From: a virus
Reading direction: 5' to 3' (one strand)
IMG/VR virus record: IMGVR_UViG_3300045988_162908
DNA length: 64,000 nucleotides
Each line of letters starts with the position of its first letter. Within the stretch, counting starts at the first letter, position 1. A model generated the notes under the pieces. That model worked only from the letters and a program-made list of their open reading frames with translations. It ran no database searches and was not told the origin of the DNA. Below are positions 6,370-47,466 of this stretch, in pieces. The position numbers were made by a program, and so were the translations under genes.

Positions 6370-6431
6370 AAAGGTAAAAAAGTAAAAAGGTAAAAAGGTA
6401 AAAAGAGCATTCTTGCTTTTAAAGGTAAAAA
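6370..6431 (+). repeat. GGTAAAAA-family array A2 with AGAGCATTCTTGCT core
   Basis: aaaggtaaaaaagtaaaaaggtaaaaaggtaaaaagagcattcttgcttttaaaggtaaaaa lies between the 969-aa gene and the ketosynthase. Confidence 0.85.
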
Positions 6432-7679: not shown

Positions 7680-7697
7680 AGGTAAAAAGGTAAAAGG
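7678..7697 (+). repeat. GGTAAAAA-family array A3
   Basis: aaaggtaaaaaggtaaaagg lies between the ketosynthase stop and the ACP start. Confidence 0.8.
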
Positions 7698-7700
7698 AAT

Positions 7701-7949
7701 ATGGAAAGGAAAGATATACAAAAAAGGCTGCATTCTATTATTAATGGATTGAGGTCATCGTGGAATAATGCAGAGATAACTGACAGCTCTGATCTGCGAG
7801 AAGATATAGGCTTAGAGTCTATTGATTTCTTGGACTTGATACTTCAGACAGAAACGATGTTTAGCATCAAGATTACTCCATCTGAAGCCGCAGGTTGCAA
7901 GGTAGTTTCAGACTTTGTTTCACTCGTGGAACAAAAAGTCAATAAGTAA
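7701..7949 (+). CDS. acyl carrier protein
   Basis: 82 aa. DIGLESIDFLDLILQTETMFSIKI matches the ACP D-S-L phosphopantetheine-serine helix II pattern. Lies directly downstream of the KS. Confidence 0.8.
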   Translation: MERKDIQKRLHSIINGLRSSWNNAEITDSSDLREDIGLESIDFLDLILQTETMFSIKITPSEAAGCKVVSDFVSLVEQKVNK

Positions 7950-17671: not shown

Positions 17672-18289
17672 ATGGCATTTACAGAGGATTTGTACATATA
17701 TAAAGATACGCTACTCTTGTGCAAGATATTACTCAAGTATAGTAATAGCGTGAGTAGAACCGTCAGATTTACAACCTACAATGAAGCGGTCGTCAAGTCT
17801 TGTACAGCTCTTGACTTGGTTAGGAGAATTAATGAAAGTTGGGAGAATAGAGAGGAGCGTATGCACGATTATATTCTGCTTATGTCGGAAGTTAAGTCAA
17901 GGATCAGCCTCCTCACGGATGCCGAGTTCTTAAACAAGAAACAGGCAACTAACCTTAATATGATGTCAGACAAGGTACTGAAGGAGGTGTACGGCTGGCG
18001 GAAGTCTGAGCGGAAGCGCAAAGGCGAGAATTGCAGAGTCAACGACAATGCGAGAGTGCCGTCACTGGATGTGACAAGGGGTACAATCACGCAACTCACT
18101 TATGTGAGAAGTGAGCAGACTGAAAAACAGAGAATGTACCGAGATACGCAGAGCAGCGCTACGAACGCTTGGAACTACAGTAGTAGTGCAAACAACAACT
18201 ACAAGTGGAACAGTTACGTGGTCCTGCCAGTTTACGATTATCCAACAGTGACGAATGCCTCTGTATTTGCTATTTTTAAAGGGATATGA
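17672..18289 (+). CDS. avd: Avd-like accessory protein; the ORF continues through the TR
   Basis: The N-terminal ~115 aa are helical and basic (..EVYGWRKSERKRKGE), in the position of the DGR accessory variability determinant. The ORF has no stop until TGA 18287-18289, which overlaps the RT ATG. Confidence 0.7.
   Translation: MAFTEDLYIYKDTLLLCKILLKYSNSVSRTVRFTTYNEAVVKSCTALDLVRRINESWENREERMHDYILLMSEVKSRISLLTDAEFLNKKQATNLNMMSDKVLKEVYGWRKSERKRKGENCRVNDNARVPSLDVTRGTITQLTYVRSEQTEKQRMYRDTQSSATNAWNYSSSANNNYKWNSYVVLPVYDYPTVTNASVFAIFKGI
18145..18236 (+). other. DGR template region (TR)
   Basis: tacgcagagcagcgctacgaacgcttggaactacagtagtagtgcaaacaacaactacaagtggaacagttacgtggtcctgccagtttacg. AAC-rich and lies between avd and the RT. 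Confidence 0.9.
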
Positions 18290-19452
18290 AATTTGAAAGA
18301 GAATATGTTACGATAGAAGAGGTGTATGCCGCCTATTATGACTGCTGCAAGCATAAAGGTTCAACACCAGGTTGCATCGAATATCAGATGAACTACATTG
18401 CGAATAATTATCAGCTATATATCGAACTCAACTCGATGATATATGAGATAAGTAAGAGCAAGGCGTTTTGTGTGACGAGACCAAAGCTCAGGGAAGTGTT
18501 CTGTGCAGATTTCCGTGACCGCATCATTCACCATCTGCTTGCTATCAAGTTCACGGATATACTCGAAGGCGAAATGACAGATAAGGCGTATGCCTGCCGT
18601 AAGGGTAAGGGAACTGGTTATGGTATCGCTGATGTCAAGAAGCAAATAAAGCGAGTGAGCGATAACTATACTAAGGAAGCATGGATATTGAAAGGTGATT
18701 TACAGGGCTTCTTCATGAGCATCAATCGTTTACTCCTTTACGACCTCTTCGAAAAGGCCATCAGAAAAAAGTATCATGGAAGTGATATAGAATGGTGGCT
18801 GTGGCTATGGAAGAAAGTCGTCTTACATGACCCGACAAAGAACTGTGTTCGAGTAGGCGATTTGAGCTTGTGGGATAAGCTTCCTGCTAACAAGTCGCTT
18901 TTTACCTGCGGTGAGGGCAAGGGACTCCCGATCGGCAACCTGCCATCGCAATTACTTGCCAACCTTCTGCTATCTCGATTCGATAAGCTGATGATAGAGC
19001 GAGTGGGCGAAGATGGTGGATATGGCAGATATGTAGATGATTTTGTGGTTATCGGTAGGGATAAAAAGTTACTCCTGAATATTCTGCAAGAGGCAAGGAA
19101 CTATCTGTTAGAAGAGCTTGGTCTTACGTTGCATCCTCATAAGGTTAGCCTACAGAGAGCAGCGAGTGGAGTGAGGTTCACGGGCGTATTAATTCGTCCA
19201 GGCAGGACACTTCCAAACCAACGAACGATAGAACATCTATATGACGTGATTGATAGGTTCGGGATGGCGCCCAACCCTGAAGGTGAAGTATTACAGAGGT
19301 ATGCAAACCGCATCAACAGTCTGATGGGTATGCTTGCTCATTGCAATACTTATAACATTAGACGAAAAGCGTGGACTATGATGCCGCACAAAGACAGAGT
19401 TTTCTGCATAAATATGAAGAAAATTAGAATAATGAATAAATATAAAATGTAA
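18286..19452 (+). CDS. DGR reverse transcriptase
   Basis: GLPIGNLPSQLLANLLLSRFD and YGRYVDDFVVIG (YxDD) motifs. 388 aa. Confidence 0.9.
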   Translation: MKFEREYVTIEEVYAAYYDCCKHKGSTPGCIEYQMNYIANNYQLYIELNSMIYEISKSKAFCVTRPKLREVFCADFRDRIIHHLLAIKFTDILEGEMTDKAYACRKGKGTGYGIADVKKQIKRVSDNYTKEAWILKGDLQGFFMSINRLLLYDLFEKAIRKKYHGSDIEWWLWLWKKVVLHDPTKNCVRVGDLSLWDKLPANKSLFTCGEGKGLPIGNLPSQLLANLLLSRFDKLMIERVGEDGGYGRYVDDFVVIGRDKKLLLNILQEARNYLLEELGLTLHPHKVSLQRAASGVRFTGVLIRPGRTLPNQRTIEHLYDVIDRFGMAPNPEGEVLQRYANRINSLMGMLAHCNTYNIRRKAWTMMPHKDRVFCINMKKIRIMNKYKM

Positions 19453-21399: not shown

Positions 21400-21586
21400 A
21401 GGTAAAAAAGTAAAAAAGTAAAAAAGTAAAAAGAGCATTTTTGCTCCAAGATGGACTTTTAAAAGTAAAAGGTAAAAAGGTAAAAATGGCAGGGATATAT
21501 ATTGCCCTACTGATTTTTTACCTTTTTACCTTTTTACTCTTTTACCTTTTTACCTTTAAAAGGCTCTTTTTACTTTTAAAATAGCG
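21398..21586. repeat. GGTAAAAA-family array A4, forward and inverted halves
   Basis: Forward copies at 21398-21445 and 21461-21487; inverted copies at 21514-21586. Lies between convergent genes and can form a very long hairpin. The inverted half encodes the lipoprotein C-terminus (..LKVKRAF). Confidence 0.85.
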
Positions 21587-23425: not shown

Positions 23426-24013
23426 TTAGTCTTCGGGCAATAATACCACCCCTACCCTAACCTTCTGTCCACAATGTGGGCAGAAGGTTTCTGCACGCAT
23501 CATATTGTTTTCGGTACGGATATTGCCGTTTTCGGTACGGATATTGCCGTTTTCGGTACGGATATTGCCGTTTTCGGTACGATTATCGGCATTTTCCATC
23601 GACTTTTCGTCTGCTGTCATCAGTCTCTTTGGGTCGAGAAATTCCATCAATTCATCCACCTCTTCCTTCTTGATGCTTGGGTAGGCTTTCTTCACCAAGT
23701 ACTGCAATCTCAGAGCGAGTGGCGTGCTGATGTTATTTGCATAGTCGATGGCTTCTTTTATTTCCTGCTCCTGCACCTGCTCCATTTCTCTATCCTGCTT
23801 TTCTTTTTCCGCAGCCTCTTCTGCTGGGTCGGGATAGAAAAGGTCGGTGATGTCGCAGCCGATGCCTTCAGCTATCTGCATGAGCTTGGCAACGGTAGGA
23901 TTGCCTTTTATTACCGAGGTCAAACTTTGAGGAGAGAGACCTAATTTTTCGCCAAGTTGAACCTGGGTTATATTGTGATCAGATAATGCTCTTTTTATAT
24001 CTAAATGCTTCAT
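23426..24013 (-). CDS. XRE-family HTH transcriptional regulator (repressor-like)
   Basis: N-terminal ITQVQLGEKLGLSPQSLTSVIKGNPTVAKLMQIAEGIG is a classic HTH_3. Followed by an acidic linker, ENGNIRT heptad repeats and C-terminal CPHCGQ. Confidence 0.8.
   Translation of the reverse strand: MKHLDIKRALSDHNITQVQLGEKLGLSPQSLTSVIKGNPTVAKLMQIAEGIGCDITDLFYPDPAEEAAEKEKQDREMEQVQEQEIKEAIDYANNISTPLALRLQYLVKKAYPSIKKEEVDELMEFLDPKRLMTADEKSMENADNRTENGNIRTENGNIRTENGNIRTENNMMRAETFCPHCGQKVRVGVVLLPED
23507..23590. repeat. 21-bp tandem repeat (3 perfect copies plus 1 degenerate)
   Basis: gttttcggtacggatattgcc repeated. Encodes ENGNIRT repeats in the minus-strand regulator. Confidence 0.9.
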
Positions 24014-24129: not shown

Positions 24130-24161
24130 TTTGGTTGTTTCGAGAAAACTCCTTATCTTTG
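24130..24161 (+). promoter_or_regulatory. canonical Bacteroidota promoter (-33 TTTG / -7 TATCTTTG)
   Basis: TTTG 24130-24133, 20 nt spacer, TATCTTTG 24154-24161. Divergent from the repressor promoter. Confidence 0.65.
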
Positions 24162-24502: not shown

Positions 24503-24694
24503 ATGATGAAAGAAACAACTATTACCCTACCTATGGGTAAAGCTGACCTTCAAGAGGCAGTTACGGCAGTTATCGAGCAGCTTGCCACTGCGCCACCCGA
24601 CACCGAGAGCATGAGTCAAGAGCAGTCCATATCCTATAATATGGGCTTGAGTATCCTTTTTGCGTGTTTGCGCTCTACTTTTGTGCAAGCATAA
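24503..24694 (+). CDS. hypothetical small protein (63 aa)
   Basis: Co-oriented ORF just upstream of 24722. Confidence 0.4.
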   Translation: MMKETTITLPMGKADLQEAVTAVIEQLATAPPDTESMSQEQSISYNMGLSILFACLRSTFVQA

Positions 24695-25401: not shown

Positions 25402-25683
25402 TTACCATTATATTTATTTAGTTTTTAGCAAGAAAAATCGCAATTTTATCTATATACTTATTTATTTTTAAGATAAAAACGTATATTTGAGTATTTTTTA
25501 CCCATATTTTTAATAAGGATAAGACGTTTTGGTTGATTTCTGAATTATTTTTAAACCCCGATAACGTATTGAAAATCAAAGTCTTATAAAACAATTATCG
25601 TGTTTTCTTCCTCCCGACTGGAGAATATAAATAATTGATATTTAGAGCAATCCGTTCTCTACGATTGTCCCGAAAACTTTAAG

Positions 25684-25836
25684 TCGCACGGATTAGCCCC
25701 GCCGCCCTGAAACGACTCCCTCCTGCCCTCCTGCCTGGGATCGGTTGGGAATATGAGGCCGCCACCAGGAGGTAGCCCCACCAGCCACCGCCGGAACTCA
25801 TCCCCCACCAGCCACCAGGAGGTAGCCACCAGCCGT
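25684..25836 (+). repeat. GC-rich, C-strand-biased repeat island in AT-rich spacer
   Basis: gccaccaggaggtagcc occurs at 25761-25777 and 25811-25827, exactly 50 nt apart. ccaccagc occurs three times (25778-25785, 25806-25813, 25826-25833). Confidence 0.75.
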
Positions 25837-26009
25837 TTAATTTTTCCTTATATATAATAAGGTGTAAACCATATAATCAGAATAAAGGTATAGTAATATA
25901 TCCTTATTAATATAAGCGTATATTTTTTGTGAATAACTGTAAATATAAAGGTATATATTGTTTTTAAACGTTAAATATAAGGGTAAATCTTTATTTTTTT
26001 CGCAAATTG

Positions 26010-26041
26010 TTTGGTGGAATAAAAATATATTATTATCTTTG
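26010..26041 (+). promoter_or_regulatory. canonical Bacteroidota promoter (-33 TTTG / -7 TATCTTTG)
   Basis: TTTG 26010-26013, 20 nt spacer, TATCTTTG 26034-26041. Points into the small-gene array. Confidence 0.65.
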
Positions 26042-26427
26042 CAAACGTAAAACAAAAGGTAATAGTTTTACGATTGATCTTTGACTTAATTACATATTGT
26101 GTGTAACTGCAGGCAGTTACTCAAAATCACAAACGAAATGAAAATATATAATAAGTAGTAAATACTTATTAATAAACATATAAGGATTTTTGCCGTTAAC
26201 CTTCAGGAAACGGCGGGCACTAACAACAGGCTATTATAAAGAATGTAGCGAGCTATTAGGTAGTGTATCTTATTACAGGCGCGGGCGTTATTTTATTGCA
26301 ACGGTAAGAAACGGTAACAACTCAAGCCAAACGAAATACAAAATACATTACATTATAGACGGTGAAAACATTTAGCTTTTGCAAAAGAGGCAGCTTCTTT
26401 TATAGCCACAAATTAAAACAAGAAACA

Positions 26428-26456
26428 TATTATAGAACATTTAAATTTTGAAAATT
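26428..26456 (+). promoter_or_regulatory. motif-1 copy (TATTATAGAAC..AAATTT..AATT fused to the ATG)
   Basis: tattatagaacatttaaattttgaaaatt|ATG. Confidence 0.75.
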
Positions 26457-26843
26457 ATGAAAAAGAATTCAGTTATTGCAAAAGTTGCTGCGATTGCAGC
26501 ATTAAACCCTTCAGGTTTCACCGTTGACGCTGCAACTTTGCAGCCTGTAACAGCCGGTTACGCGGTTGCTATGAAACAGACACAAAACAGCTTTGGACCT
26601 GAAGGTCTGGCAAAGGTTGCAAACACTATCGAGGAGCTCCAGGCCGGCGCCGCAAAGATCGGCTTAAATATAGACGGCCGTCTGGCTTTTGGCGGCTGGT
26701 ATGACTCAGAAAGCGGCCTCTATTATTATGATGCTACTTTGATTTTTCCGGAAAATTGGAAAAAAGAAGCAATCGAGGCCGGTCGCGCAAACGAGCAAAT
26801 AGCAATCTTCGACCTGTCAAACTTGGAGGAGATTCGATTGTAA
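26457..26843 (+). CDS. hypothetical protein (128 aa)
   Basis: ATG preceded by motif-1; the tracked start 26448 is a TTG inside the motif. No family recognised. Confidence 0.65.
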   Translation: MKKNSVIAKVAAIAALNPSGFTVDAATLQPVTAGYAVAMKQTQNSFGPEGLAKVANTIEELQAGAAKIGLNIDGRLAFGGWYDSESGLYYYDATLIFPENWKKEAIEAGRANEQIAIFDLSNLEEIRL

Positions 26844-26854
26844 TATAAGTTAAC

Positions 26855-26874
26855 GGGGGCCGTTCCTGGCTCCC
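26855..26874 (+). terminator. gene-end hairpin
   Basis: gggggcc-gttcct-ggctccc (one G-U pair), then a T-rich stretch. Confidence 0.4.
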
Positions 26875-26886
26875 TTATTATCCCTT

Positions 26887-26917
26887 TATTATAGAAACAT
26901 TTTAAAATTTAGAAATT
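26887..26917 (+). promoter_or_regulatory. motif-1 copy
   Basis: tattatagaaacattttaaaatttagaaatt|ATG. Confidence 0.75.
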
Positions 26918-27355
26918 ATGAAAAATAAAAGATATAATATCAAAACATTTGATTTTGTAGTTAACGGCGAACATATTTATTTTACTTGTAGCACTTCAAA
27001 CACACGAAACGGCTTTTGTCATCATGTTTTTGCATTCGGAGGCGGCAAAGATTATGAGCACTCCCGCGTATCATATTATAACCGCACTTGGGAGACCTTC
27101 GAGTATGAAACGGCCCTATATCACGCTATAGAGAAGTTTTCTAAAAGTATGCGTGAACCTTTGCGCCTCGAAGTGGAGGCGCTGGCACTCGATGAACACA
27201 AAAAGGCCGAATGCTTTATAAAAGCATTCGAAGCTAATTTTGTCGCATTAAGCGACGAACAAAAGAAATTTGTGTGTGAACACACACCAGAAATCACAAA
27301 CAAGGACCAGGCAAAAACCGTTAACGCGGCCGTTGCCATGATGGCGGCGCTATAA
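26918..27355 (+). CDS. hypothetical protein (145 aa)
   Basis: ATG preceded by motif-1. Confidence 0.65.
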   Translation: MKNKRYNIKTFDFVVNGEHIYFTCSTSNTRNGFCHHVFAFGGGKDYEHSRVSYYNRTWETFEYETALYHAIEKFSKSMREPLRLEVEALALDEHKKAECFIKAFEANFVALSDEQKKFVCEHTPEITNKDQAKTVNAAVAMMAAL

Positions 27356-27371
27356 TATATTTTAAGGATTC

Positions 27372-27426
27372 CAGGGTACAAAGGTAGCCAGGCCAACACG
27401 GCGGATCATTCCCGCCGGTACCCCCT
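27372..27426 (+). repeat. structured intergenic element, copy 1 (domain 1 only)
   Basis: Outer stem gggtac (27374-27379) / gtaccc (27418-27423). Inner stem cggcgg/ccgccg with loop atcattc. Confidence 0.7.
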
Positions 27427-27456
27427 ATTTATAGAACATTTAAAATTTTAGGAATT
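27426..27456 (+). promoter_or_regulatory. motif-1 copy
   Basis: tatttatagaacatttaaaattttaggaatt|ATG. Confidence 0.75.
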
Positions 27457-27768
27457 ATGAAAAAGAATTTTGATTTTTTTGGTATCATGGCAAAGTTGAA
27501 GGCAGTAGCCGCAAAGGTAAAGTTTTTCTTTGCCGTACTCGCAAAGGTAGAAGTTTTTTATTTTTTCCCTGTAGCCCTGGCGATCGTCTTCTTTGCGGTT
27601 GTTATTGATTGCGTTTTTGCACTTGTTTCCGGCGGGTGCCCTAATGTTGCTAAAGCCGTCGAAGGTATTATTATTTTCGGCCTTCTGTCTTTTGTTTCCG
27701 CTTTCGCGGGTATTGCCTGTATCGCTGCAGATTGGGACTATACAAAGAAAGAAGTGCTAATTAAATAA
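27457..27768 (+). CDS. small membrane protein (103 aa)
   Basis: Motif-1 lies upstream. Several hydrophobic helices. Confidence 0.6.
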   Translation: MKKNFDFFGIMAKLKAVAAKVKFFFAVLAKVEVFYFFPVALAIVFFAVVIDCVFALVSGGCPNVAKAVEGIIIFGLLSFVSAFAGIACIAADWDYTKKEVLIK

Positions 27769-27820
27769 TATGAGATAACAGCGAGAAAAGAAAGTATCAA
27801 TTTTCTAAACATATAACATC

Positions 27821-28012
27821 ATGGCAAAGAAGACAATTAAACAACAGTACGACGAGTTAGCAAAATACGGTGAATGTTTCGAGCAAGAAGGTTATGGAGG
27901 CTTTGCCCTTGTAATCGACGAAAACGGGGAACGTGCCCTATATAAGGTTTGTTATAACAATACGGAGGAACTTTGCGCGCGCTGGCAAAAAAATAAAATA
28001 CACGTGCCCTAA
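27821..28012 (+). CDS. hypothetical small protein (63 aa)
   Basis: Co-oriented ORF, but the only one in the block without motif-1. Confidence 0.4.
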   Translation: MAKKTIKQQYDELAKYGECFEQEGYGGFALVIDENGERALYKVCYNNTEELCARWQKNKIHVP

Positions 28013-28100
28013 AAAAGAAAATAACTGGCCCCGTCCTTATATCACAATTAAGGGAGTGCGCCACTATCTCGACAACTTCATGCGGTGTGCATAAAAGCCC

Positions 28101-28125
28101 GGTACCCTGAACCTTCCAGGGTACC
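28101..28125 (+). terminator. gene-end hairpin with CCAGGGTACC arm
   Basis: ggtaccctg-aaccttc-cagggtacc, a perfect 9-bp stem. Confidence 0.45.
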
Positions 28126-28138
28126 CACAAAATAACTA

Positions 28139-28167
28139 TATTATAGAATTTTTAAAATATTGAGAAA
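28139..28167 (+). promoter_or_regulatory. motif-1 copy
   Basis: tattatagaatttttaaaatattgagaaa|ATG. Confidence 0.7.
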
Positions 28168-28428
28168 ATGAACAATTATAATATTACATTTTCGCGCCGT
28201 TCCAGTACGGCGGCCCTGGTAAGTGTTTTATTTGCCGTGTGTGCCATTCTGTTTGCACGCCTGAATAAAAGTACCTTTGCAGCTATAAAAAGCGCCTGGC
28301 GATGGTTATTTGCGCCTAAAACCTACTTTGCCAGCGATGGCGACGGTGTAACGGTCAACGGGCTTCAATTTATCGGTATTAATCTAATAGCCGCGGCCGT
28401 GTGTGTATTACTGTCTATCTCCTTATAA
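28168..28428 (+). CDS. small membrane protein (86 aa)
   Basis: Motif-1 lies upstream. Two hydrophobic segments. Confidence 0.55.
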   Translation: MNNYNITFSRRSSTAALVSVLFAVCAILFARLNKSTFAAIKSAWRWLFAPKTYFASDGDGVTVNGLQFIGINLIAAAVCVLLSISL

Positions 28429-28456
28429 AGATATTCTTTTTCAAACTTTAAATATC

Positions 28457-28556
28457 AGGGTGCAAAGGTATCCAGGCCAAAACGGCGGATCATTCCCGCC
28501 GGCACCTTCTAATAAGTGATAAAGCCGCTTTTATAGCGGTTGCAAAATATCACAAG
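28457..28556 (+). repeat. structured intergenic element, copy 2 (domains 1 and 2)
   Basis: Domain 1: agggtgc / gcacctt around cggcgg-atcattc-ccgccg. Domain 2: gtgata..gccgct-tttat-agcggt..tatcac. Confidence 0.7.
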
Positions 28557-28570
28557 GAATTAATAAAATA

Positions 28571-28600
28571 TATTATAGAACATTTTAATTTTTAGGCAAT
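28571..28600 (+). promoter_or_regulatory. motif-1 copy
   Basis: tattatagaacattttaatttttaggcaat|ATG. Confidence 0.75.
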
Positions 28601-28819
28601 ATGAAAAAGAAAATTTTCTCATTTGAAATGTACCTTATTATGAACGGTACGTGGACCCTGTTACGTAATTTTCGTTGTGATATAAACGAAAAGAGAAAAC
28701 AAGTAGCATACCTTAAAAACAAGGGTTATGTTTACGACCGAAAAGAAAAAGCCTACTTTTTACGAAATGTAGGCACCGCCTATAATTGCGCCGTGTCAAT
28801 TAAAAGCTATGAGATGTAA
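28601..28819 (+). CDS. hypothetical small protein (72 aa)
   Basis: Motif-1 lies upstream. Confidence 0.55.
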   Translation: MKKKIFSFEMYLIMNGTWTLLRNFRCDINEKRKQVAYLKNKGYVYDRKEKAYFLRNVGTAYNCAVSIKSYEM

Positions 28820-28831
28820 AATATAGTGCTA

Positions 28832-28862
28832 TATTATAGGACGTTTTTAAAAATAGAAAATT
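28832..28862 (+). promoter_or_regulatory. motif-1 copy
   Basis: tattataggacgtttttaaaaatagaaaatt|ATG. Confidence 0.7.
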
Positions 28863-29051
28863 ATGAAAGCAGCATCTTTTATTACATCAAAAAATTATAG
28901 CGGTGAAGACATTTGTCAAATATATTTGGGACGTCGAGCCGCTGAAGAAGGATACCAGAGTATCCAGGAGCTTATTTCAGACTTACCAAACAGGACACCC
29001 AAGGGCAAAAGAAGCGGAATTGGTTTTTGGTCCTTATGTTTTAAGAAATAA
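28863..29051 (+). CDS. hypothetical small protein (62 aa)
   Basis: Motif-1 lies upstream. Preferred over the overlapping ORF 28903..29187, which runs through the structured element. Confidence 0.5.
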   Translation: MKAASFITSKNYSGEDICQIYLGRRAAEEGYQSIQELISDLPNRTPKGKRSGIGFWSLCFKK

Positions 29052-29150
29052 GGTGCAAAGGTTTAAGGCCCACACGGCGGATCATTCCCGCCGGCACCTT
29101 CTAATAAGTGATAAAAGCCCTATTTATAGCGGCTGCAAAATATCACGAAG
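29050..29150 (+). repeat. structured intergenic element, copy 3 (domains 1 and 2)
   Basis: Domain 1: aaggtgc / gcacctt around cggcgg-atcattc-ccgccg. Domain 2: gtgata...tatcac. Near-identical to copy 2. Confidence 0.7.
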
Positions 29151-29163
29151 AATTATTAAACAG

Positions 29164-29191
29164 ATTATAGAACATTTAAATTTTTAGAGTT
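29164..29191 (+). promoter_or_regulatory. motif-1 copy
   Basis: attatagaacatttaaatttttagagtt|ATG. Confidence 0.75.
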
Positions 29192-29578
29192 ATGAAGACT
29201 TTTCATTTTAATTACACGGTGACTCCTTCTGTATTATACGACAAGGAGGGCAACGAAAAAAGTGCGGATTTTTGGATTGATATTAGAAATCAGCACAGCG
29301 AGATCCAGGCGGAAAACCTGAAGGAGGCGTGCCGGGCATTCAGCGAGATTCTGAGCCGTAACTGGTGCATAGATTTGACCAAAAACGGCATAAAAACCGC
29401 TGAAGGTGTGTATAGAGACACCGACAAAGGAGTAGAACAGGTAGGTCTTGTATTCAAGGCGCGCACGGAGATTGAATTTGATTACGCTTATAAAAGACGT
29501 AATATTCGAGTATGGGCATCTATCCGTGAAGAGTTCATTCCCGATTTTGAGAAAGAAGGCTTTAAGGTATCATTATAG
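29192..29578 (+). CDS. hypothetical protein (128 aa)
   Basis: Motif-1 lies upstream. Confidence 0.65.
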   Translation: MKTFHFNYTVTPSVLYDKEGNEKSADFWIDIRNQHSEIQAENLKEACRAFSEILSRNWCIDLTKNGIKTAEGVYRDTDKGVEQVGLVFKARTEIEFDYAYKRRNIRVWASIREEFIPDFEKEGFKVSL

Positions 29579-29599
29579 ACTCTTTAAAATTTTGAGGAT
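29572..29599 (+). promoter_or_regulatory. motif-1 copy (overlaps the upstream stop codon)
   Basis: attatagactctttaaaattttgaggat|ATG. Confidence 0.7.
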
Positions 29600-29887
29600 A
29601 TGAAGAAATTAAAGAAATTAGCTATTTTATTGCGTGCCCTTGGCTTTAAGGTTGAAGTAAGACACGAGCCTATCACTTTTGATGATGGCACCGTAATAGA
29701 AAATATCTTTGCCGCCGTCGATTTAGCGGGCTGTCACTGGGACATCTGGCACGAAGGTGTTACCTTTGAAATGCACTTTTATAGGAATAAGGAGTGTATT
29801 TATGATCAGGTGTACTACTCGTTTCAGCTTGGAGTTATCAAACAGATTTTTATAGACTTCGACAAGTACGAAAAATACGCCTGTTAA
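29600..29887 (+). CDS. hypothetical protein (95 aa)
   Basis: Motif-1 lies upstream. Confidence 0.6.
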   Translation: MKKLKKLAILLRALGFKVEVRHEPITFDDGTVIENIFAAVDLAGCHWDIWHEGVTFEMHFYRNKECIYDQVYYSFQLGVIKQIFIDFDKYEKYAC

Positions 29888-29891
29888 GGCT

Positions 29892-29916
29892 TCCAGGGCA
29901 CTCCTGGAGTCTTTTA
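29892..29916 (+). terminator. gene-end hairpin plus T-run
   Basis: tccagg-gcact-cctgga then gtctttta. Confidence 0.45.
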
Positions 29917-29940
29917 TATAGGATGCAAAGAATATCACTA

Positions 29941-29971
29941 TATTATAGAACAATTTTAATTTTGAGGAATT
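29941..29971 (+). promoter_or_regulatory. motif-1 copy
   Basis: tattatagaacaattttaattttgaggaatt|ATG. Confidence 0.75.
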
Positions 29972-30796
29972 ATGGAAGCAAAGATAGATTTTGAGAATTT
30001 GGAAAAAGAGGCCATCTGGAAAATTGAGGACCGCCTGGGTGATTTAAAAGAAGACTCCGGAGACGTTTTTCTGTGGGCAAGTAATTCTATCCCGGCTACA
30101 AAACCGGAACGTTTTAGCAGCGTGAAAAATGCAAAAGAATACGGAATTTTGAGAAATGAGTCTTACATGCGCCGTGGTATAATGAAACGAGATGAGCCAA
30201 TAGACTATATTATAGGATCGGAAAAAGATTACCAAAAAACCGTGAAGTCTTGGTTCCGTCGCAAGAAAAACGAGATGGTAAGAAAGTACCGCGAACACGT
30301 CGAAAAACTCGTGGACCGCTCAAACAAAGAAATAACAGCGATGAAGGCGTTTAAAGACGTTTGCCGTACCTTCGATGGCAAAGTGATAAATAAGCGCTTT
30401 CTGGACGCTGCAAGGTATGCTACAGGCTTTTCTTGTAGCTTTTATGATGGCTGTCTTGAAATGAACGCTATCAATTCTTACGGAGAATACGCTCCAGGTA
30501 TCACGTTTTATTCTCCTTGTTGTTCTCTGACACAAAAAGCCTGGAAGTGGACGACAAACGACCGTATGGCTGCAGCAGAAGCCGTCGATCTGATAGACGG
30601 GTATATCTTGAACAAAACACGGGATATTGCTAAATACAAAGATAGCATCAAACATTATGCAAAGTACGTGGACCAGGTACGCAAAATCGAGGCTTCTCTT
30701 CATAAGCTGGTAAAAACCGATGTAACGATCAGAGGCTGGGCACGTGAACACGACCTGGAGAAGTACCCACTGTTTGGTCACATCTGGGTATGCTAA
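29972..30796 (+). CDS. hypothetical protein (274 aa)
   Basis: Motif-1 lies upstream. Largest gene of the array. The antisense 30320..30799 is treated as a shadow. Confidence 0.65.
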   Translation: MEAKIDFENLEKEAIWKIEDRLGDLKEDSGDVFLWASNSIPATKPERFSSVKNAKEYGILRNESYMRRGIMKRDEPIDYIIGSEKDYQKTVKSWFRRKKNEMVRKYREHVEKLVDRSNKEITAMKAFKDVCRTFDGKVINKRFLDAARYATGFSCSFYDGCLEMNAINSYGEYAPGITFYSPCCSLTQKAWKWTTNDRMAAAEAVDLIDGYILNKTRDIAKYKDSIKHYAKYVDQVRKIEASLHKLVKTDVTIRGWAREHDLEKYPLFGHIWVC

Positions 30797-30802
30797 CAAA
30801 TA

Positions 30803-30823
30803 GCCCTGAATGCTATTCAGGGC
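30803..30823 (+). terminator. gene-end hairpin
   Basis: gccctgaat-gct-attcagggc, a 9-bp stem. Confidence 0.45.
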
Positions 30824-30852
30824 ACCCTTTATAGAATGAGTGATTTTTTACT

Positions 30853-30883
30853 TATTATAGAACGTTTTTAATATTGAGGAATT
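30853..30883 (+). promoter_or_regulatory. motif-1 copy
   Basis: tattatagaacgtttttaatattgaggaatt|ATG. Confidence 0.75.
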
Positions 30884-31595
30884 ATGAAAGACAATAAATT
30901 GTATGTAGATATTTTGAGCCGACAGGCAAATAAGGATGGCAGACCATACGAAATGGCACTGAGCGATTTCTGTGACTTCCTTCTGGATTTATTCAGCGTC
31001 GAGGCATTCAAGGGCAAAGATGTTGACAGCCTGCAAAACTGGTTTAGTGAGCGTATCAGCAAGAAGCCTGACTTCGGGCTACTGGCTACAAACTGGCTGG
31101 TAGATGTAAGCGTGGCACTTCAGAATGGTACCTGGCTTGATGTGTTTGGCATTCTTTATGAGAACATGTACCTATTACCTGGCAAGGCCTCCAAGACAGG
31201 GCAATTTTTCACGCCTCCTGCCATTTCCGACCTAATAAGTGATATTATAGGCTCGAAGAAAAAAACAGGCTTCCAGCCCTAATATTTCAGGCAAAACGGT
31301 AAATGATTGCGCCGCTGGTAGCGGTCGCCTTCTTCTGTCACACTTTGCTAAAATGAGCAGCCCTGATCCTTCAGTAGGTAGAACATATAAGTATGTTGCC
31401 CAGGATTCAGATCCGCTGGCATGTAAGATGTGCGCCCTGAACATGATGGCGCACGGTATGAATGGCGTGGTAATCTGCCAGGATACCTTGGCAATGAGTA
31501 CACCATCGGCGGTGTATTACGTCAACGAAGTGAAATATCCATTTAATACGCCTTATTATAGCGTGCGTGTAGTATCAGGGGATCCAGCAAAATAG
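30884..31595 (+). pseudogene. frameshifted, C-terminally truncated N6-adenine methyltransferase-like gene
   Basis: ORF 30884..31282 carries GQFFTPPAISDLISDIIG (MTase motif X). After the A7 tract at 31259-31265, the +1 frame continues ..VNDCAAGSGRLLL (motif I) and ..ACKMCALNMMAHGMNGVVICQDTL. No NPPY/F motif before the stop at 31595. Confidence 0.6.
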
Positions 31596-31622
31596 GATTC
31601 CCTGGCAATAAAGAAAATAACA

Positions 31623-31642
31623 TATTATAGAACAGATAGAAA
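31623..31642 (+). promoter_or_regulatory. motif-1 copy (short form)
   Basis: tattatagaacagatagaaa|ATG. Confidence 0.55.
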
Positions 31643-31999
31643 ATGAAGAAATCATCAGTTATATATAATTTCGCTATCTCGCAGCATCAGGGTAAAATCC
31701 TGCTGACTGCCCAGGAATACCCCTGGAGTGTGCTCCAGGTAATCACTTTCGAGCCACAATTTTTCGACAAGGTGGTGGCGCTTTGCAAGCGCCGCGGTAT
31801 GGTAGCTACCCACGACAAGGATCGCTCCTTCTGCATCATCCATCTTGGCAGTGGAGATCAGAACGGCAAATATCCAGATAGGCATATCAATACCGATACG
31901 CCGGCAGCTATCGACAAGTATCTGGAGGCATTGAAAGATGCGATGGCGCAAGCAGTGGTTTGGTATTTTACGAATATTATAGAACGTGTGAAAAATTAG
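31643..31999 (+). CDS. hypothetical protein (118 aa)
   Basis: Short motif-1 lies upstream. Confidence 0.6.
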   Translation: MKKSSVIYNFAISQHQGKILLTAQEYPWSVLQVITFEPQFFDKVVALCKRRGMVATHDKDRSFCIIHLGSGDQNGKYPDRHINTDTPAAIDKYLEALKDAMAQAVVWYFTNIIERVKN

Positions 32000-32004
32000 A
32001 AATT
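31975..32004 (+). promoter_or_regulatory. motif-1 copy (inside the 3' end of the upstream gene)
   Basis: tattatagaacgtgtgaaaaattagaaatt|ATG. Confidence 0.7.
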
Positions 32005-32265
32005 ATGATAGAATATTTGTTAGATATATATACGATCCGCAGATATACAAATGGGAAGGTAACATGTGAGAAAATCTCGAAAGTACTTAAAGAAAGTACG
32101 GTAAAACTTGCAAAACGAGCTTGCAAAAACGTTGGTTATAAGTACATCGGACGTTACAAGGATACATACGGTAACTATTATGCCAAGTATGAACGCAAGG
32201 ATGAAAAGTTATCTAATTCCGAATGTGAAGTTTACTTCAGGCAGATATTCACAAAATTAAAGTAA
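32005..32265 (+). CDS. hypothetical protein (86 aa)
   Basis: The ATG at 32005 follows motif-1; the tracked 31960 start is probably too far upstream. Confidence 0.55.
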   Translation: MIEYLLDIYTIRRYTNGKVTCEKISKVLKESTVKLAKRACKNVGYKYIGRYKDTYGNYYAKYERKDEKLSNSECEVYFRQIFTKLK

Positions 32266-32295
32266 TATAGAATCAATAAAAAATTAGAAAATCGT
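32263..32295 (+). promoter_or_regulatory. motif-1 copy (divergent)
   Basis: taatatagaatcaataaaaaattagaaaatcgt|ATG. Confidence 0.55.
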
Positions 32296-32595
32296 ATGAA
32301 GCATATTTATATACTGAGCACTTGCGACAACTGGAAATCCCGCGGCTCAATGATTAGATATTACGTCGGATCATCCGACAAGGCTGGCACCCGCCGACTG
32401 CTGGCAGCTATCACAAAAGGTATTAGGGATCGCGTTTTCCGTTGGGCTACGAATGGCGAGAAGATTCCGGTACTGGAACAGATAGAAGACTTTCAACACG
32501 ATGTGAAGTTTGCCGGTGCTACAGTTGCGTATGAAATCCAGAGTAAACTGGAAGGCGGCTCGCTGGAGCTCGTAGAGTTTAACAGTTATCAGTAG
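32296..32595 (+). CDS. hypothetical protein (99 aa)
   Basis: Divergent motif-1 lies upstream. Confidence 0.6.
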   Translation: MKHIYILSTCDNWKSRGSMIRYYVGSSDKAGTRRLLAAITKGIRDRVFRWATNGEKIPVLEQIEDFQHDVKFAGATVAYEIQSKLEGGSLELVEFNSYQ

Positions 32596-32625
32596 TATTG
32601 TAGAATCATAAAAAAATTAGAAATT
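32596..32625 (+). promoter_or_regulatory. motif-1 copy (divergent)
   Basis: tattgtagaatcataaaaaaattagaaatt|ATG. Confidence 0.6.
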
Positions 32626-32886
32626 ATGGCAAAGTTAACAAAGAAAGATAAGGAGTTTTTAAAGAAAATCGGCTATCTCGAAGAGGATTTCAATCAGATA
32701 GAAAAAGCCAATTACAAGTATTACACCAAAGATGATCAGAGAATCAGCGAGGAGGAAGCTCTTAAAAAGTTAGGTAGAGATCGCTGGCTGTCTGGTATAG
32801 GTAGAGCCTGTTTTCATGCTTCATCTGTAAGAGATTACAAGCGTGGTTCAGGATATGTATATATAAATAGTGATACTTTCCAATAA
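32626..32886 (+). CDS. hypothetical protein (86 aa)
   Basis: Motif-1 lies upstream. Confidence 0.6.
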   Translation: MAKLTKKDKEFLKKIGYLEEDFNQIEKANYKYYTKDDQRISEEEALKKLGRDRWLSGIGRACFHASSVRDYKRGSGYVYINSDTFQ

Positions 32887-32904
32887 ATAATATCACGATC
32901 ATCA

Positions 32905-32934
32905 TATTATAACAACATTAAAAAATCAGAAATT
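32905..32934 (+). promoter_or_regulatory. motif-1 copy (divergent)
   Basis: tattataacaacattaaaaaatcagaaatt|ATG. Confidence 0.55.
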
Positions 32935-33477
32935 ATGGAATCAAAGAATAATAATAAGAACGGTATGAACGTTATAGAGAATATAGAAAACGAAGTGAAG
33001 GTAACAGAAGAGAGCCGCAAGGCATACGGACGACCATCTGTTAACGAGGAAAAGGGCTGGAAGCTGGATCACGTTATCCCTTTTGACTTCTACCACAACG
33101 CATATATAAAGAGCCGCATGGGTATTGATGAACTCGTAGAGATAGTGCTGCAGGAGTGTAATATCAGCGCGGATGATACCTGTTCCTGGGCAAAAGATAT
33201 TCGCACACTCATTAAGTACGCCATCGAGCATTTCGATGAGCGGATGGAGGAGGACGAGGAAGACCCGGATGGGGAAAATGAACTCTTATCAGGGTGCTGG
33301 ATAGGCGATGCTATCACCCTGCGTGAAGAGGCGTACGAGTGCGCAGAAATGCACCGCAGCCACACACCAGAAGAGAGACAGGAGTTTCTTGAATATTGCT
33401 GGGGATTTGCATCTAAGGCTGCGAGCCGCATCGACCGCATGATGAAGATATTTGAGCCTTCAGACACGAAGCAGTAA
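32935..33477 (+). CDS. hypothetical acidic protein (180 aa)
   Basis: Motif-1 lies upstream. Contains the run MEEDEEDPDGENE. Confidence 0.6.
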   Translation: MESKNNNKNGMNVIENIENEVKVTEESRKAYGRPSVNEEKGWKLDHVIPFDFYHNAYIKSRMGIDELVEIVLQECNISADDTCSWAKDIRTLIKYAIEHFDERMEEDEEDPDGENELLSGCWIGDAITLREEAYECAEMHRSHTPEERQEFLEYCWGFASKAASRIDRMMKIFEPSDTKQ

Positions 33478-33492
33478 CCCACCATCCCATAC

Positions 33493-33517
33493 AGGGGAAG
33501 TCTGAAAGCCTTCCCCT
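33493..33517 (+). terminator. hairpin at the end of the motif-1 array
   Basis: aggggaag-N9-cttcccct, an 8-bp stem with no T-run. Followed by about 250 nt of GC-rich hairpin-prone spacer. Confidence 0.4.
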
Positions 33518-33819
33518 ACCCCGTCCGGCAGACCGGCAAGCGTGGAGCGACACCACGGCGAGGTGCATTATTTCTTTGAAATAACTTTGAAATTTTAAAT
33601 GTTTTTTGCGGAAGCGTCCGCACTTGTTTTCACGCTGTCTGCGGTCCGTGAGGATAGCAGCGGCATTTTTTCCCATCGCTGCCACGGCTGGCACCATCTA
33701 TTGAAGATGTGAGGATCGACACCTCAGAGCGAACAATGACTGACAAATAAGGTATAGAGTGCTGAAAACGTGATAAAACGTTAAAAATACATCTAAAATA
33801 GTATTTTATGTGTATTTTA

Positions 33820-33851
33820 TTTGGTAGTTTCAGAAATTATCCGTACCTTTG
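33820..33851 (+). promoter_or_regulatory. canonical Bacteroidota promoter (-33 TTTG / -7 TACCTTTG)
   Basis: TTTG 33820-33823, 20 nt spacer, TACCTTTG 33844-33851. Heads the motif-2 gene set. Confidence 0.65.
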
Positions 33852-33897
33852 CATCAGATAAAACAAGAAGATAATATATAATACTAATAATCATTTT

Positions 33898-33932
33898 TAG
33901 CCCTAAGCGCATCACGGTTAAGCGCAAGTAAT
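33898..33932 (+). promoter_or_regulatory. motif-2 copy (AGCCCTAAGCGC-ATCACGGTTAA-GCGC hairpin before the ATG)
   Basis: tagccctaagcgcatcacggttaagcgcaagtaat|ATG. Confidence 0.75.
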
Positions 33933-34298: not shown

Positions 34299-34311
34299 TA
34301 CATTTATAATT

Positions 34312-34346
34312 TAGCCCTAAGCGCATCACGGTTAAGCGCAAACAAT
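34312..34346 (+). promoter_or_regulatory. motif-2 copy
   Basis: tagccctaagcgcatcacggttaagcgcaaacaat|ATG. Confidence 0.75.
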
Positions 34347-35061: not shown

Positions 35062-35097
35062 TAAGCCCTAAGCGCATCACGGTTAAGCGCAAATAAT
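35062..35097 (+). promoter_or_regulatory. motif-2 copy
   Basis: taagccctaagcgcatcacggttaagcgcaaataat|ATG. Confidence 0.75.
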
Positions 35098-35723: not shown

Positions 35724-35756
35724 CAGCCCTACGCATCACGGTCAAGCGGAACTAAT
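35724..35756 (+). promoter_or_regulatory. motif-2 copy (variant stem)
   Basis: cagccctacgcatcacggtcaagcggaactaat|ATG. Confidence 0.65.
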
Positions 35757-37231: not shown

Positions 37232-37263
37232 CAGCCCTACCGCAGCACGGCGAAGCGGATTTT
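37232..37263 (+). promoter_or_regulatory. motif-2 copy (compensated stem CCGC/GCGG)
   Basis: cagccctaccgcagcacggcgaagcggatttt|ATG. Confidence 0.6.
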
Positions 37264-40398: not shown

Positions 40399-40454
40399 GT
40401 AAAGGTAAAAAGGTAAAAGAGTAAAAAGGTAAAAAGAGCATTCTTGCTTTTACC
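40399..40454 (+). repeat. GGTAAAAA-family array A6 with AGAGCATTCTTGCT core
   Basis: gtaaaggtaaaaaggtaaaagagtaaaaaggtaaaaagagcattcttgcttttacc. Confidence 0.85.
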
Positions 40455-44079: not shown

Positions 44080-44250
44080 AAAGGTAAAAAAGTAAAAAGG
44101 TAAAAAGGTAAAAAGAGCCTGGCGGGATATTGCTGTTCTTTTTACCTTTTGCCTTTTATAGCAAGAATATTCTTTTTACTCTTTTACCTTTTTACTCTTA
44201 TCAGCAAGAATGTTCTTTTTACCTTTTTACTCTTTTACCTTTTTACCTTT
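44080..44250. repeat. GGTAAAAA-family array A8, forward and inverted halves
   Basis: Forward 44080-44117; inverted 44136-44250, including two agcaagaatRttcttttt cores. Confidence 0.85.
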
Positions 44251-46841: not shown

Positions 46842-47351
46842 ATGACAAAGGAAATTATAGAAAAAGTTACGCAGCAGAACAATTCGTTAGACGTTAACGA
46901 CCTAAATGCTGAAGAGAAGAAGAATTTAGCTGAGTTTTTATCGGCTAAGGGCTTCACTGACTCTACTTTTTACCTTCGATTCTTTCAGAAAGGTTTCGAT
47001 GCTTGGGAAATTCTGGGTATTAATAACTGTAAAAGTCAGTTTTTAGGTATGCCTGATATAGGTAAGGTATTACTTGAGTACGTAGAGCGTGATGCCTTGG
47101 GTAACGAGATAGGCGATAAGGGTTATCTCTATACTCTTGCCCAGAGTGATAAGCCGGGTGTATTTTATGCCTGTTTGAAGCAGGCAGCAAACGGCTTATG
47201 TATGAAACTCTACTCCTTCATGGAGGAACGAGGTATGAGTCGTACCACCATCATCAAGCGTTTCTCGTCTGATGACTGGAAAGAGTGGGAAAAGGTAGGC
47301 ATCAAAGCCTTGCTGGAAGAGTTCTTAAAAGGTAAAAAAGTAAAAGAGTAA
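46842..47351 (+). CDS. hypothetical protein (169 aa)
   Basis: The ATG after the promoter is preferred to the tracked 46785. Its last residues, LKGKKVKE, are encoded by repeat array A9. Confidence 0.6.
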   Translation: MTKEIIEKVTQQNNSLDVNDLNAEEKKNLAEFLSAKGFTDSTFYLRFFQKGFDAWEILGINNCKSQFLGMPDIGKVLLEYVERDALGNEIGDKGYLYTLAQSDKPGVFYACLKQAANGLCMKLYSFMEERGMSRTTIIKRFSSDDWKEWEKVGIKALLEEFLKGKKVKE

Positions 47352-47466
47352 AAAGGTAAAAAGCAGTCTTACTGAAAAAGGTAAAAACCTCGCATGAATC
47401 CAGGGAACAAGGAAAAGAAGCAGGAATGCTCTTTTTACCTTTTTACCTTTTTACTTTTTTACTTTT
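47327..47466. repeat. GGTAAAAA-family array A9, forward and inverted halves
   Basis: Forward 47327-47387; inverted 47421-47466 (gcaggaatgctctttttacctttttacctttttacttttttactttt). Confidence 0.85.

Follow-up and report, generated by a model that had tools for sequence, protein, structure and literature searches.

The viral DNA analysed here is a stretch of 64,000 nucleotides (nt) from the IMG/VR record IMGVR_UViG_3300045988_162908, referred to below as the window. Between an immunity region and a set of replication genes it carries an array of small co-oriented genes, most of which begin directly behind the same short element. Reading of positions 26000-33600 identified an 11-nt box, TATTATAGAAC, with the invariant core ATTATAGAA, 5' of 15 of these genes in the block 26428-32935; in the promoter proposed below its consensus is written wTATTATAGAAC. 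The 36 nt upstream of 16 start codons were compared, and in 15 cases a box is followed by an AU-rich leader, 27821 being the one without. The units are given below, with the open reading frame (ORF) products in amino acids (aa) and their transmembrane (TM) segments.

26428-26438 with leader to 26456, plus strand: box and leader of unit A; gene 26457-26843, 128 aa
26887-26917, plus strand: box and leader of unit B; gene 26918-27355, 145 aa
27427-27456, plus strand: box (ATTTATAGAAC) and leader of unit C; gene 27457-27768, 103 aa, 3 TM segments
27821-28094, plus strand: gene Q, box-less and frameshifted, within unit C
28139-28167, plus strand: box and leader of unit D; gene 28168-28428, 86 aa, 2 TM segments
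28571-28600, plus strand: box and leader of unit E; gene 28601-28819, 72 aa
28832-28862, plus strand: box and leader of unit F; gene 28863-29051, 62 aa
29163-29191, plus strand: box and leader of unit G; gene 29192-29578, 128 aa
29571-29599, plus strand: weak box (CATTATAGACT) and leader, overlapping the 3' end of gene G; gene 29600-29887, 95 aa
29941-29971, plus strand: box and leader of unit H; gene 29972-30796, 274 aa, found in 13 of 13 compared genomes
30827-30837, plus strand: decayed orphan box (CTTTATAGAAT), 26 nt 5' of the unit-I box; a perfect box without an ORF in relatives
30853-30883, plus strand: box and leader of unit I; split gene 30884-31282 and 31353-31595
31623-31642, plus strand: box and 9-nt leader of unit J; gene 31643-31999, 118 aa
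31975-32004, plus strand: box and leader of unit K, the box lying within the 3' end of gene J; gene 32005-32265, 86 aa
32263-32295, plus strand: box (TAATATAGAAT) and leader of unit L, overlapping the K stop codon; gene 32296-32595, 99 aa
32596-32625, plus strand: box (TATTGTAGAAT) and leader of unit M; gene 32626-32886, 86 aa
32905-32934, plus strand: weakest box (TATTATAACAA) and leader of the last unit; gene 32935-33477, 180 aa, acidic

An earlier note on this DNA had placed a common element before these 15 start codons and named 27821 alone as lacking it. Both statements were confirmed by reading the sequence upstream of each start codon, and 27821 proved to be a frameshifted copy of a 90-aa gene. 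The element had been described as about 30 bp long; it is indeed present 15 times, but it consists of two parts of which only the box is specific to the block, and it is shortened before 31643, where the box ends 9 nt from the ATG. Its overlap with the preceding gene had been counted in two cases, and the actual number is higher, as box or leader overlaps the upstream ORF at 29571, 31975 and 32263 and abuts it at 32596. The description of the genes as self-contained units is largely borne out for the start element and the ORF, while the closing hairpin is often, not always, found.

The box is a real, non-random and strand-specific signal that is confined to a single 7-kb block. Exact copies occur six times in the window, all on the plus strand between 26428 and 31985. 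With at most one mismatch there are 11 matches, against 1.75 expected in the whole window and a maximum of six in 100 shuffles, and 10 of the 11 lie on the plus strand within the array. A weight matrix was built from the 15 array sites and scored in bits; when the window was scanned with it, all matches of at least 14.7 bits were intergenic array sites and none lay elsewhere. The copies at 32905 (8.6 bits), 29571 and 27427 are weak. Near the immunity region, a box-like TATTATAGGAT (13.2 bits) is found on the minus strand at 24631-24641, inside the ORF 24503-24694. The scan was extended to about 40 kb of flanking sequence from the same or related phages, consisting of 10 kb before the window start and 10 kb past its end, on contigs encoding identical window proteins, and of sequence from two relatives that represents the remaining 20 kb or so of the genome. 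In these flanks there was no box match of at least 12.5 bits, and the best match at or above 12 bits was a single 12.0-bit site with no start codon downstream. The box is practically absent elsewhere in about 104 kb of the genome, whose total length of about 107 kb was derived from the geometry of a single ENA contig carrying both window ends.

The same arrangement recurs in related phages. With the 274-aa unit-H protein as query, 12 IMG/VR loci were retrieved at 40-91% identity, and all 12, including two loci at 40% identity, carry 9-14 same-strand boxes at the same distance from the ATG, the other strand being nearly empty. A pattern search with the box and the first 7 nt of the leader yielded about 35 further loci, with about 25 more contigs of 60-108 kb; most of them hold two or three exact copies, and the remainder resemble single chance matches. 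The lineage is common in human-gut assemblies, two conserved proteins matching 156 and 246 IMG/VR stretches, and no relative was found among deposited phage genomes.

The anatomy of the element was derived from 111 distinct sites, pooled from the window and the 12 loci retrieved with the unit-H protein (13 genomes). Positions 2-10 of the box show little or no variation, there is no conservation beyond 2-3 nt upstream of it, and an A is located 7 nt past its end in 110 of the 111 sites. If TAGAAC/T (or, alternatively, TATTAT) acts as a -10-type element, this A would be well placed as the purine of a transcription start site. The distance from the end of the box to the ATG is 17-22 nt in 100 sites and 9-10 nt in the other 11, every one of which belongs to gene J (31643 in the window). 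The leader is AU-rich and closes with a purine patch and (A/T)TT before the ATG. Since the same start context precedes genes outside the block, for example at 473, 1686, 19459, 20175 and 24722, the leader is not part of the specific signal and represents the ordinary translation-start context of this genome. Similarly, AGGA-type cores are present in 24 of 83 leaders and also before several genes elsewhere, so a GAGGA Shine-Dalgarno-like core is not the rarity outside the block that it had been taken for. The statement that the element is not a host TAnnTTTG promoter holds, as TAnnTTTG occurs in 2 of 83 leaders and nothing is conserved upstream of the box. Rfam searches at gathering and permissive thresholds returned no RNA family at the box, which has no conserved RNA structure of its own.

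Host-type promoters of the form TTTG-N20-TAnnTTTG were located with a regex scan at a few intergenic sites, at the heads of gene blocks, and no further one was found between the array genes. The assignment of a Bacteroidota host is based on this promoter type alone, the species-genome collection having yielded only an uninformative 1,954-bp contig of a metagenome-assembled genome, labelled Clostridia.

26010-26041, plus strand: Bacteroidota-type promoter (TTTG-N20-TATCTTTG) heading the array
33820-33851, plus strand: next Bacteroidota-type promoter, heading the following block
24130, 26010, 33820, 40839 and 46784, plus strand, and 46849, minus strand: host-type promoters of the regex scan

The first gene of the array shows how box and host-type promoter relate to each other. 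In about 25 relatives a TTTG-N20-TAnnTTTG promoter ends some 45 nt before the gene A ATG, and the gene there has the usual AU-rich leader with AAAGTATAAAC in place of the box. A box before gene A is found in the window only, all relatives compared being without it, and it matches the unit-G copy over 39 nt at 90% identity (repeat family D6); its presence is best explained by gene conversion between units. As gene A in the relatives has a leader without a box, the box is not needed for translation and can be dispensed with where another promoter is present. Its absence where another source of a 5' end exists argues against a translational enhancer, and fits a promoter and a processing site alike. 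A T-tailed hairpin follows gene A and probably keeps read-through from the head promoter low.

A non-coding insert of about 365 nt (26051-26416) separates the head promoter from gene A in the window and in L001, L005, L027, L065 and L073, and has within it a hairpin and, at 26352-26360, a box-like ATTATAGAC. Most relatives have the promoter directly next to gene A. With regard to the product of this gene, 475 homologues were found, all within this lineage, and no Pfam family. Its AlphaFold model (mean predicted local distance difference test score, pLDDT, 73) has no PDB match, and in BFVD it matches an uncharacterised phage domain that is either free-standing, in actinophages, or part of large multi-domain proteins. 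The domain is embedded in uncultured-phage proteins of 800-1100 aa, one of them named Zeta-toxin-domain-containing and one XkdF. Judging from the model, this could be a module of early or polyvalent proteins with a wide distribution. Its position at the head of the array, its universal presence and its host promoter also made gene A a candidate for a specificity factor, which was rejected since the model contains no DNA-binding or sigma-like fold.

The gene content behind the boxes is variable. Over 47 loci, 26 protein families stand behind boxes, with 9-15 per genome; families H, I, O, J and D are near-universal and the others patchy. This agrees with the description of the block in the earlier note as an accessory gene bank, and gene order is not identical in all relatives, in which units are present, absent or replaced. 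As for the cassette shuffling proposed there, unit turnover is evident and several junctions lie on boxes, but no free reordering is seen: the order of units is essentially colinear, with gain, loss and replacement at fixed slots and with unit E as the one exception.

Several of these junctions could be placed by BLAST against the window. The box at 31625-31634 is an exact junction, at which L001, L002, L003 and L008 carry an extra unit O of 212-214 aa. Unit L (32263-32594) is missing from L001, and the flanking matches overlap by 30 nt, which corresponds to one box and leader; unit K is missing from L002 with a similar overlap. Homology with L001, L002 and L008 ends at 28594/28595, inside the unit-E leader, and resumes at about 29049-29052 in a repeated hairpin element. 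The array is a variable region in which the elements flank ORFs without homologues (ORFans), with junctions inside the elements that include 31625-31634, 28594/28595, 32263-32290 and 32594. Over all pairs, 34% of homology ends fall within -10 to +35 of a box start, compared with 5.5% of random positions, an enrichment that is in part to be expected for any indel at a gene boundary. Upstream of orthologues, homology begins at or just 5' of the box, the similarity starting at AATATCAC-TATATTATAGAAC whatever the upstream neighbour. Some real boxes have, 26 nt to their 5' side, an orphan box whose leader is truncated and which no ORF follows, as at 7153 and 8066 in L004 and, in decayed form, at 30827 in the window; these orphans look like scars of box-proximal deletions. 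One event did not make use of boxes, as gene C was inserted between the leader and the ATG of gene Q and has no box of its own. The 90-aa Q gene has its own box in L003 and L008.

G+C-rich hairpins lie 0-30 nt 5' of about eight of the 15 boxes, and their folds are significantly more stable than those of shuffled sequences. The T-rich tails of some of them run into the T-rich start of the box. The hairpins and related features are the following.

26855-26874, plus strand: G+C-rich hairpin with a T-rich tail, terminator-like, 3' of gene A
27365-27426, plus strand: first of three copies of a branched hairpin element, running up to the next box; fold z = -2.1; repeat families D5 and D12
28101-28125, plus strand: hairpin GGTACCCTG...CAGGGTACC, 3' of the C/Q unit
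28457-28553, plus strand: branched hairpin, copy 2, and a second hairpin holding a box-like TTTTATAGCGG; z = -3.5; repeat families D5 and D11
29050-29146, plus strand: branched hairpin, copy 3, and a second hairpin; fold z = -3.1
29886-29913, plus strand: hairpin with a T-rich tail, 3' of gene 29600-29887
30803-30823, plus strand: hairpin GCCCTGAAT...ATTCAGGGC, 3' of gene H
31576-31604, plus strand: inverted repeat CAGGGGATCC...GGATTCCCTG at the end of unit I, read from the sequence, the fold computation having taken in part of it only
33607-33622, plus strand: terminator-like hairpin with a T-tail, closing the block

In alignments inspected by eye, the hairpin at 28101-28125 has compensatory changes in relatives, from GGTACC to GGTTCC...GGAACC. 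The gene-H hairpin, aligned across 10 relatives, is kept in them, with one pair altered on both sides. A closing hairpin for many of the genes had already been noticed, and it is present for about eight of them; the compact 3' part (31643-32935) has none, and the boxes there lie inside or against the preceding ORF. More precisely, no hairpin was found upstream of the unit at 29571 or of the units from 31975 on.

With regard to the products, only one of the 26 box-associated families has a Pfam family, which nonetheless corrects the view that no product is recognisable. The two ORFs 30884 and 31353 form a frameshifted N6_Mtase-like protein, whose intact form in relatives has 235-238 aa; the 236-aa form of L002 (5251-5958) matches PF02384 with E = 3e-15. 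Unit I matches PF02384 at positions 4-121 only, which make up the N-terminal half of the N6_Mtase fold, and it ends soon after an NTPY that stands where NPPY/F is expected. Rather than an enzyme, its product may be a methylase-like decoy without activity or a protein binding S-adenosylmethionine. Compared with intact relatives, unit I (31255-31265) and gene Q (27984-27996) each have one additional A in a poly-A run; these frameshifts could reflect assembly error, pseudogenisation or slippage-prone tracts. Membrane peptides, of which several had been announced, are limited to the products of 27457 and 28168. A counter-defence role of the bank is a guess, for which the N6-methylase-like half-protein and the fold of gene A are the only hints.

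The rest of the window shows the array to be one of several blocks with their own upstream signals. Phage genes in the window encode tail-fibre-like proteins, a reverse transcriptase of the diversity-generating retroelement (DGR) type, a ParA-like protein, an exonuclease, a sliding-clamp homologue (53255-54448) and a 1229-aa primase-like protein, and a CI-like HTH_3 protein is encoded by the minus strand 2.4 kb upstream of the array (23426-24013). The next five genes after the array (33933, 34347, 35098, 35757 and 37264) are preceded by a second motif, AGCCCTAAGCGCATCACGGTTAAGCGCAA, whose end lies about 6 nt 5' of the ATG. Relatives have kept this motif, for which no stable RNA fold was obtained, and it may represent a further class of promoter or operator, giving near-leaderless mRNAs. 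A third upstream motif class consists of tandem GGTAAAA(A/G) repeats, on both strands and intergenic in the structural and replication blocks, the structural genes being preceded by tandem AAGGTAAAA repeats; the interval 26.4-33.5 kb is without such arrays.

33896-33932, 34310-34346, 35062-35097, 35727-35756 and 37235-37263: copies of AGCCCTAAGCGCATCACGGTTAAGCGCAA
2776-2800, 6373-6430, 7681-7697, 21401-21554, 40404-40454, 44083-44247 and 47331-47447: tandem GGTAAAA(A/G) repeats

Several upstream motif classes therefore alternate block by block, in what looks like a temporal promoter scheme.

Further features were observed in the surroundings. Among the structural genes, a ketoacyl-synthase-like protein (PF00109/PF02801; 6441-7679) and a small PP-binding, acyl-carrier-like protein (7701-7949) both have AAGGTAAAA repeats upstream; enzymes of the fatty-acid or polyketide type are unusual for a phage virion module. 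The DGR-type reverse transcriptase (18286-19452; phrog_1423, E = 3e-76) adjoins the tail-fibre genes. A G+C-rich stretch at 25660-25835, with the direct repeats CACCAGGAGGTAGCC and CCACCAGCCACC, each present twice, precedes an AT-rich region and the head promoter; a comparable G+C-rich stretch follows the array at 33480-33560, and 25660-25835 has a counterpart in L003. A complete LysR-family regulator (HTH_1 and LysR_substrate) is encoded near head genes in L166 (8907-9809), with a ThyX-type and a guanylate-kinase-like protein among its neighbours; it also stands first among the genes of L013 and L014.

With moderate confidence, the box is read here as the core of a phage-class promoter that has no upstream partner and that, together with the hairpins, would form promoter/terminator cassettes doubling as recombination patches. 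As a short A+T-rich element of the melting type, it would define a phage-specific promoter class, and its presence before nearly every gene of the 7-kb block would provide each gene with its own mRNA and a very short leader. The hairpins 5' of about eight boxes would serve as terminators or insulators, hairpin and box together marking the boundary of a cassette. Some 30 bp repeated 15 times in one orientation would, in addition, offer patches of homology through which units could be lost, gained, replaced or gene-converted. The host-type promoter at the head of the block would drive gene A, and the box promoters would fire afterwards, through host RNA polymerase redirected by a candidate phage factor. 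The variable spacing of 9-22 nt to the ATG fits a promoter and not a translational signal acting at a fixed distance, and the retention of the box where the neighbouring protein is only 40% identical likewise counts in favour of a promoter.

A number of observations weigh against this reading, beginning with the polymerase that would be needed. Pfam and PHROGs were run on most window ORFs above 110 aa, precomputed Pfam results were used for the 10-kb flanks, and the ORFs of the remaining 20 kb or so were searched with Pfam; over these approximately 103 of 107 kb, neither an RNA polymerase nor a sigma factor was found. The DFDxD motif was not found in the large proteins (356-1859 aa), the sole regex match being NADAD in a 933-aa protein, which is unlike the catalytic loop, and PDB sequence searches with the 1229-aa and 969-aa proteins gave no matches. 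The box itself does not resemble the host -7/-33 consensus, lacking the TTTG at -33 as well as the TAnnTTTG already mentioned. With a host-type promoter at its head, the block could be transcribed as one long early RNA, the more so as many internal hairpins on the plus strand have no clear U-tract. Between 31643 and 32935, where hairpins are absent and boxes lie in upstream ORFs, a promoter every 300 nt would be more than is needed. The expected share of breakpoints at gene boundaries also belongs on this side, as does the fact that we infer promoter activity, its timing and the identity of the polymerase or factor from sequence.

Several known polymerase systems were tried as readers of the box and rejected. 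The leader does not hide a host -7 box for which the box would be the upstream element, given the 2 of 83 leaders with TAnnTTTG. If GAAC were the -35 element of an extracytoplasmic function (ECF)-type promoter, the -10 element would coincide with the ATG or lie 3' of it, and the 9-nt variant leaves no room for such an arrangement. Promoters of the T7/SP6 type have about 20 conserved bp, from roughly -17 to +6, and depend on a phage RNA polymerase (PF00940); here nothing is conserved more than 3 nt upstream of the box, and no RNA_pol family match was obtained in the window, the flanks or the remainder. TATAGAA is common to the box and the start region of SP6 promoters, whose long specificity region further upstream has no counterpart here. 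A virion RNA polymerase system of the crAss-like type was set aside as no DFDxD-type motif occurs in the proteins searched. The early genes of phi14:2 have no shared upstream motif, unlike this array, the crAss001 paper contains nothing on phage promoters, and in the literature the motif string appeared only inside unrelated primers.

Other explanations of the box have to be set beside a promoter. The main rival, an RNA-level signal, is unlikely: a single early polycistronic transcript from 26010-26041 would be cleaved at the box, or the box would fix 5' ends or bind an RNA-binding protein, and monocistronic mRNAs would result, with 3' ends protected by the upstream hairpins. It is consistent with the canonical host-type promoter at the head of the block and none between the genes, with the many plus-strand hairpins that lack a good U-tract, with a box that is strand-specific and always near an ATG, and with the next block, which likewise has a head promoter and a motif before each ATG. 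Moreover, gene A, whose 5' end is set by a promoter, is exactly the gene without a box in relatives, which fits a promoter equally well. Such a signal is harder to reconcile with the empty Rfam result and the lack of conserved RNA structure, with a spacing too spread for a translational operator, with the terminator-like T-rich tail of the gene-A hairpin and with the persistence of orphan boxes without ORFs. Endoribonucleases mostly read short or degenerate motifs or structures, and a near-invariant single-stranded site of 9-10 nt would be unusual for them and is promoter-like. It is improbable that the box is a stoperator-like operator, bound by a phage protein such as the CI-like HTH_3 protein (23426-24013) or the LysR regulator, which would switch the bank on or off while the promoter lies elsewhere. 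Asymmetric, co-oriented, intergenic sites are known from the stoperators of cluster A mycobacteriophages, the CI-like repressor gene is only 2.4 kb upstream, a LysR-family regulator is conserved in the lineage, and the minus-strand site at 24631-24641 lies near the immunity region. Save for that site, however, the boxes are confined to 7 kb and not spread over early and late operons, and no box-like site occurs between the repressor gene and 24503, where the host-type promoter 24130-24161 is located. In addition, HTH_3 and LysR proteins normally bind dyad-symmetric sites, and there is no separate promoter element beside the boxes, which would leave the genes behind terminator-like hairpins promoterless.

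Plain host primary-sigma promoters, with the box as a divergent -7/-10 element and no phage factor, are quite improbable. TATTAT and TAGAAT do resemble -10 hexamers, TATTATAG shares TAnnnTnG with TAnnTTTG, and no phage sigma factor or RNA polymerase was found with Pfam/PHROGs. Nevertheless, textbook TTTG-N20-TAnnTTTG promoters head gene blocks elsewhere in this phage, so that two consensus sequences co-exist; the -7 TTTG and any -33 element are absent from the box sites, and the box is missing where a host-type promoter is adjacent. Very little credence is given to integron-like sites for site-specific recombination with no role in expression. The junctions of unit gain and loss at boxes and the CCAGGG/CCCTGG arms shared by hairpins at unit ends are of the kind that such sites would produce. 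Against them stand the absence of an integrase or recombinase in Pfam searches near the block and in the flanks examined, the colinear order among relatives, a box position tied to the ATG and not to unit ends, and the entry of gene C behind a leader without a box of its own; integron cassettes are, furthermore, promoterless and carry attC at the 3' end. To return to the preferred promoter reading, a more specific form of it is put forward tentatively, in which the box would represent a new class of Bacteroidota phage promoter, consisting of a -10 element only and read by host polymerase modified by a small phage factor that profile libraries do not see, with AGCCCTAAGCGCATCACGGTTAAGCGCAA as a second class.

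The organisation of the array is itself known, its closest counterpart being the PeSL cassettes of T4-type phages; new are its consensus, the phylum of the host, the lineage and the fact that no polymerase or sigma factor to read the box could be recognised. In the PeSL cassettes a promoter and a stem-loop flank ORFans and indels occur at the elements, as has been validated experimentally (PMC2839356, PMC4122927). Promoter and terminator activity as well as recombination were demonstrated in experiments, and excised mini-circles were described (PMC2839356). PeSLs are small composite intergenic elements, a stem-loop followed by a promoter, and about eight of the 15 boxes may be built in this way, with a hairpin before a putative promoter. 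In both systems the elements are present in many copies in one orientation and flank small genes without known homologues in a variable region, and units are inserted, deleted or replaced with junctions in the elements, the repeats serving as patches of homology. The sequences are unrelated, which makes PeSLs analogues and not homologues, and the hosts belong to another phylum. Furthermore, the PeSL promoter matches the host primary-sigma consensus, whereas the box does not and has no -35/-33 element; the boxes in part of the array stand without stem-loops, and the array is known from its sequence alone.

Other systems share single aspects. In the late promoters of T4 (TATAAATA, read with gp55/gp33 and the sliding clamp), a short A+T-rich -10-type element is, as here, the sole conserved part; it does not follow the host consensus, a short leader comes after it, and the phage encodes a sliding clamp. 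In contrast, the genes here are accessory genes of an early region and not late structural genes, the consensus is another one, and no gp55/gp33-like protein was recognised. The host-takeover module of SPO1 and the early regions of T4 and T5 likewise combine dense small co-oriented genes beside the immunity or replication region with repeated promoters and terminators; their early promoters are of the host primary-sigma type, whereas the repeated element here differs from the host-type promoters of its own genome. The cluster A stoperators (L5 gp71 sites) resemble the boxes in being short, asymmetric and in one orientation within short intergenic spaces near gene starts and stops, but they are spread genome-wide and match the early lytic operator, while the boxes are confined to 7 kb (26428-32915) and locked in distance to the ATG. 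Finally, integron cassettes come with an integrase, are promoterless, have attC at the 3' end and reorder freely; here the Pfam searches gave no integrase, the element is at the 5' end and the order is colinear.

Almost nothing is known about the timing of gene expression in large non-crAss Bacteroidota gut phages. The near-invariant 11-nt element of this lineage predicts transcription start points, and Bacteroides genetics could gain from it a promoter part inducible by phage. The roughly 26 small gene families of the turnover-prone bank that it marks out are candidates for host-takeover and anti-defence screens. If the box does define a new promoter class, an abundant uncultured lineage of gut phages would possess a temporal transcription cascade, and the box-to-box repeats would, at the same time, drive the modular turnover of its early accessory gene bank.

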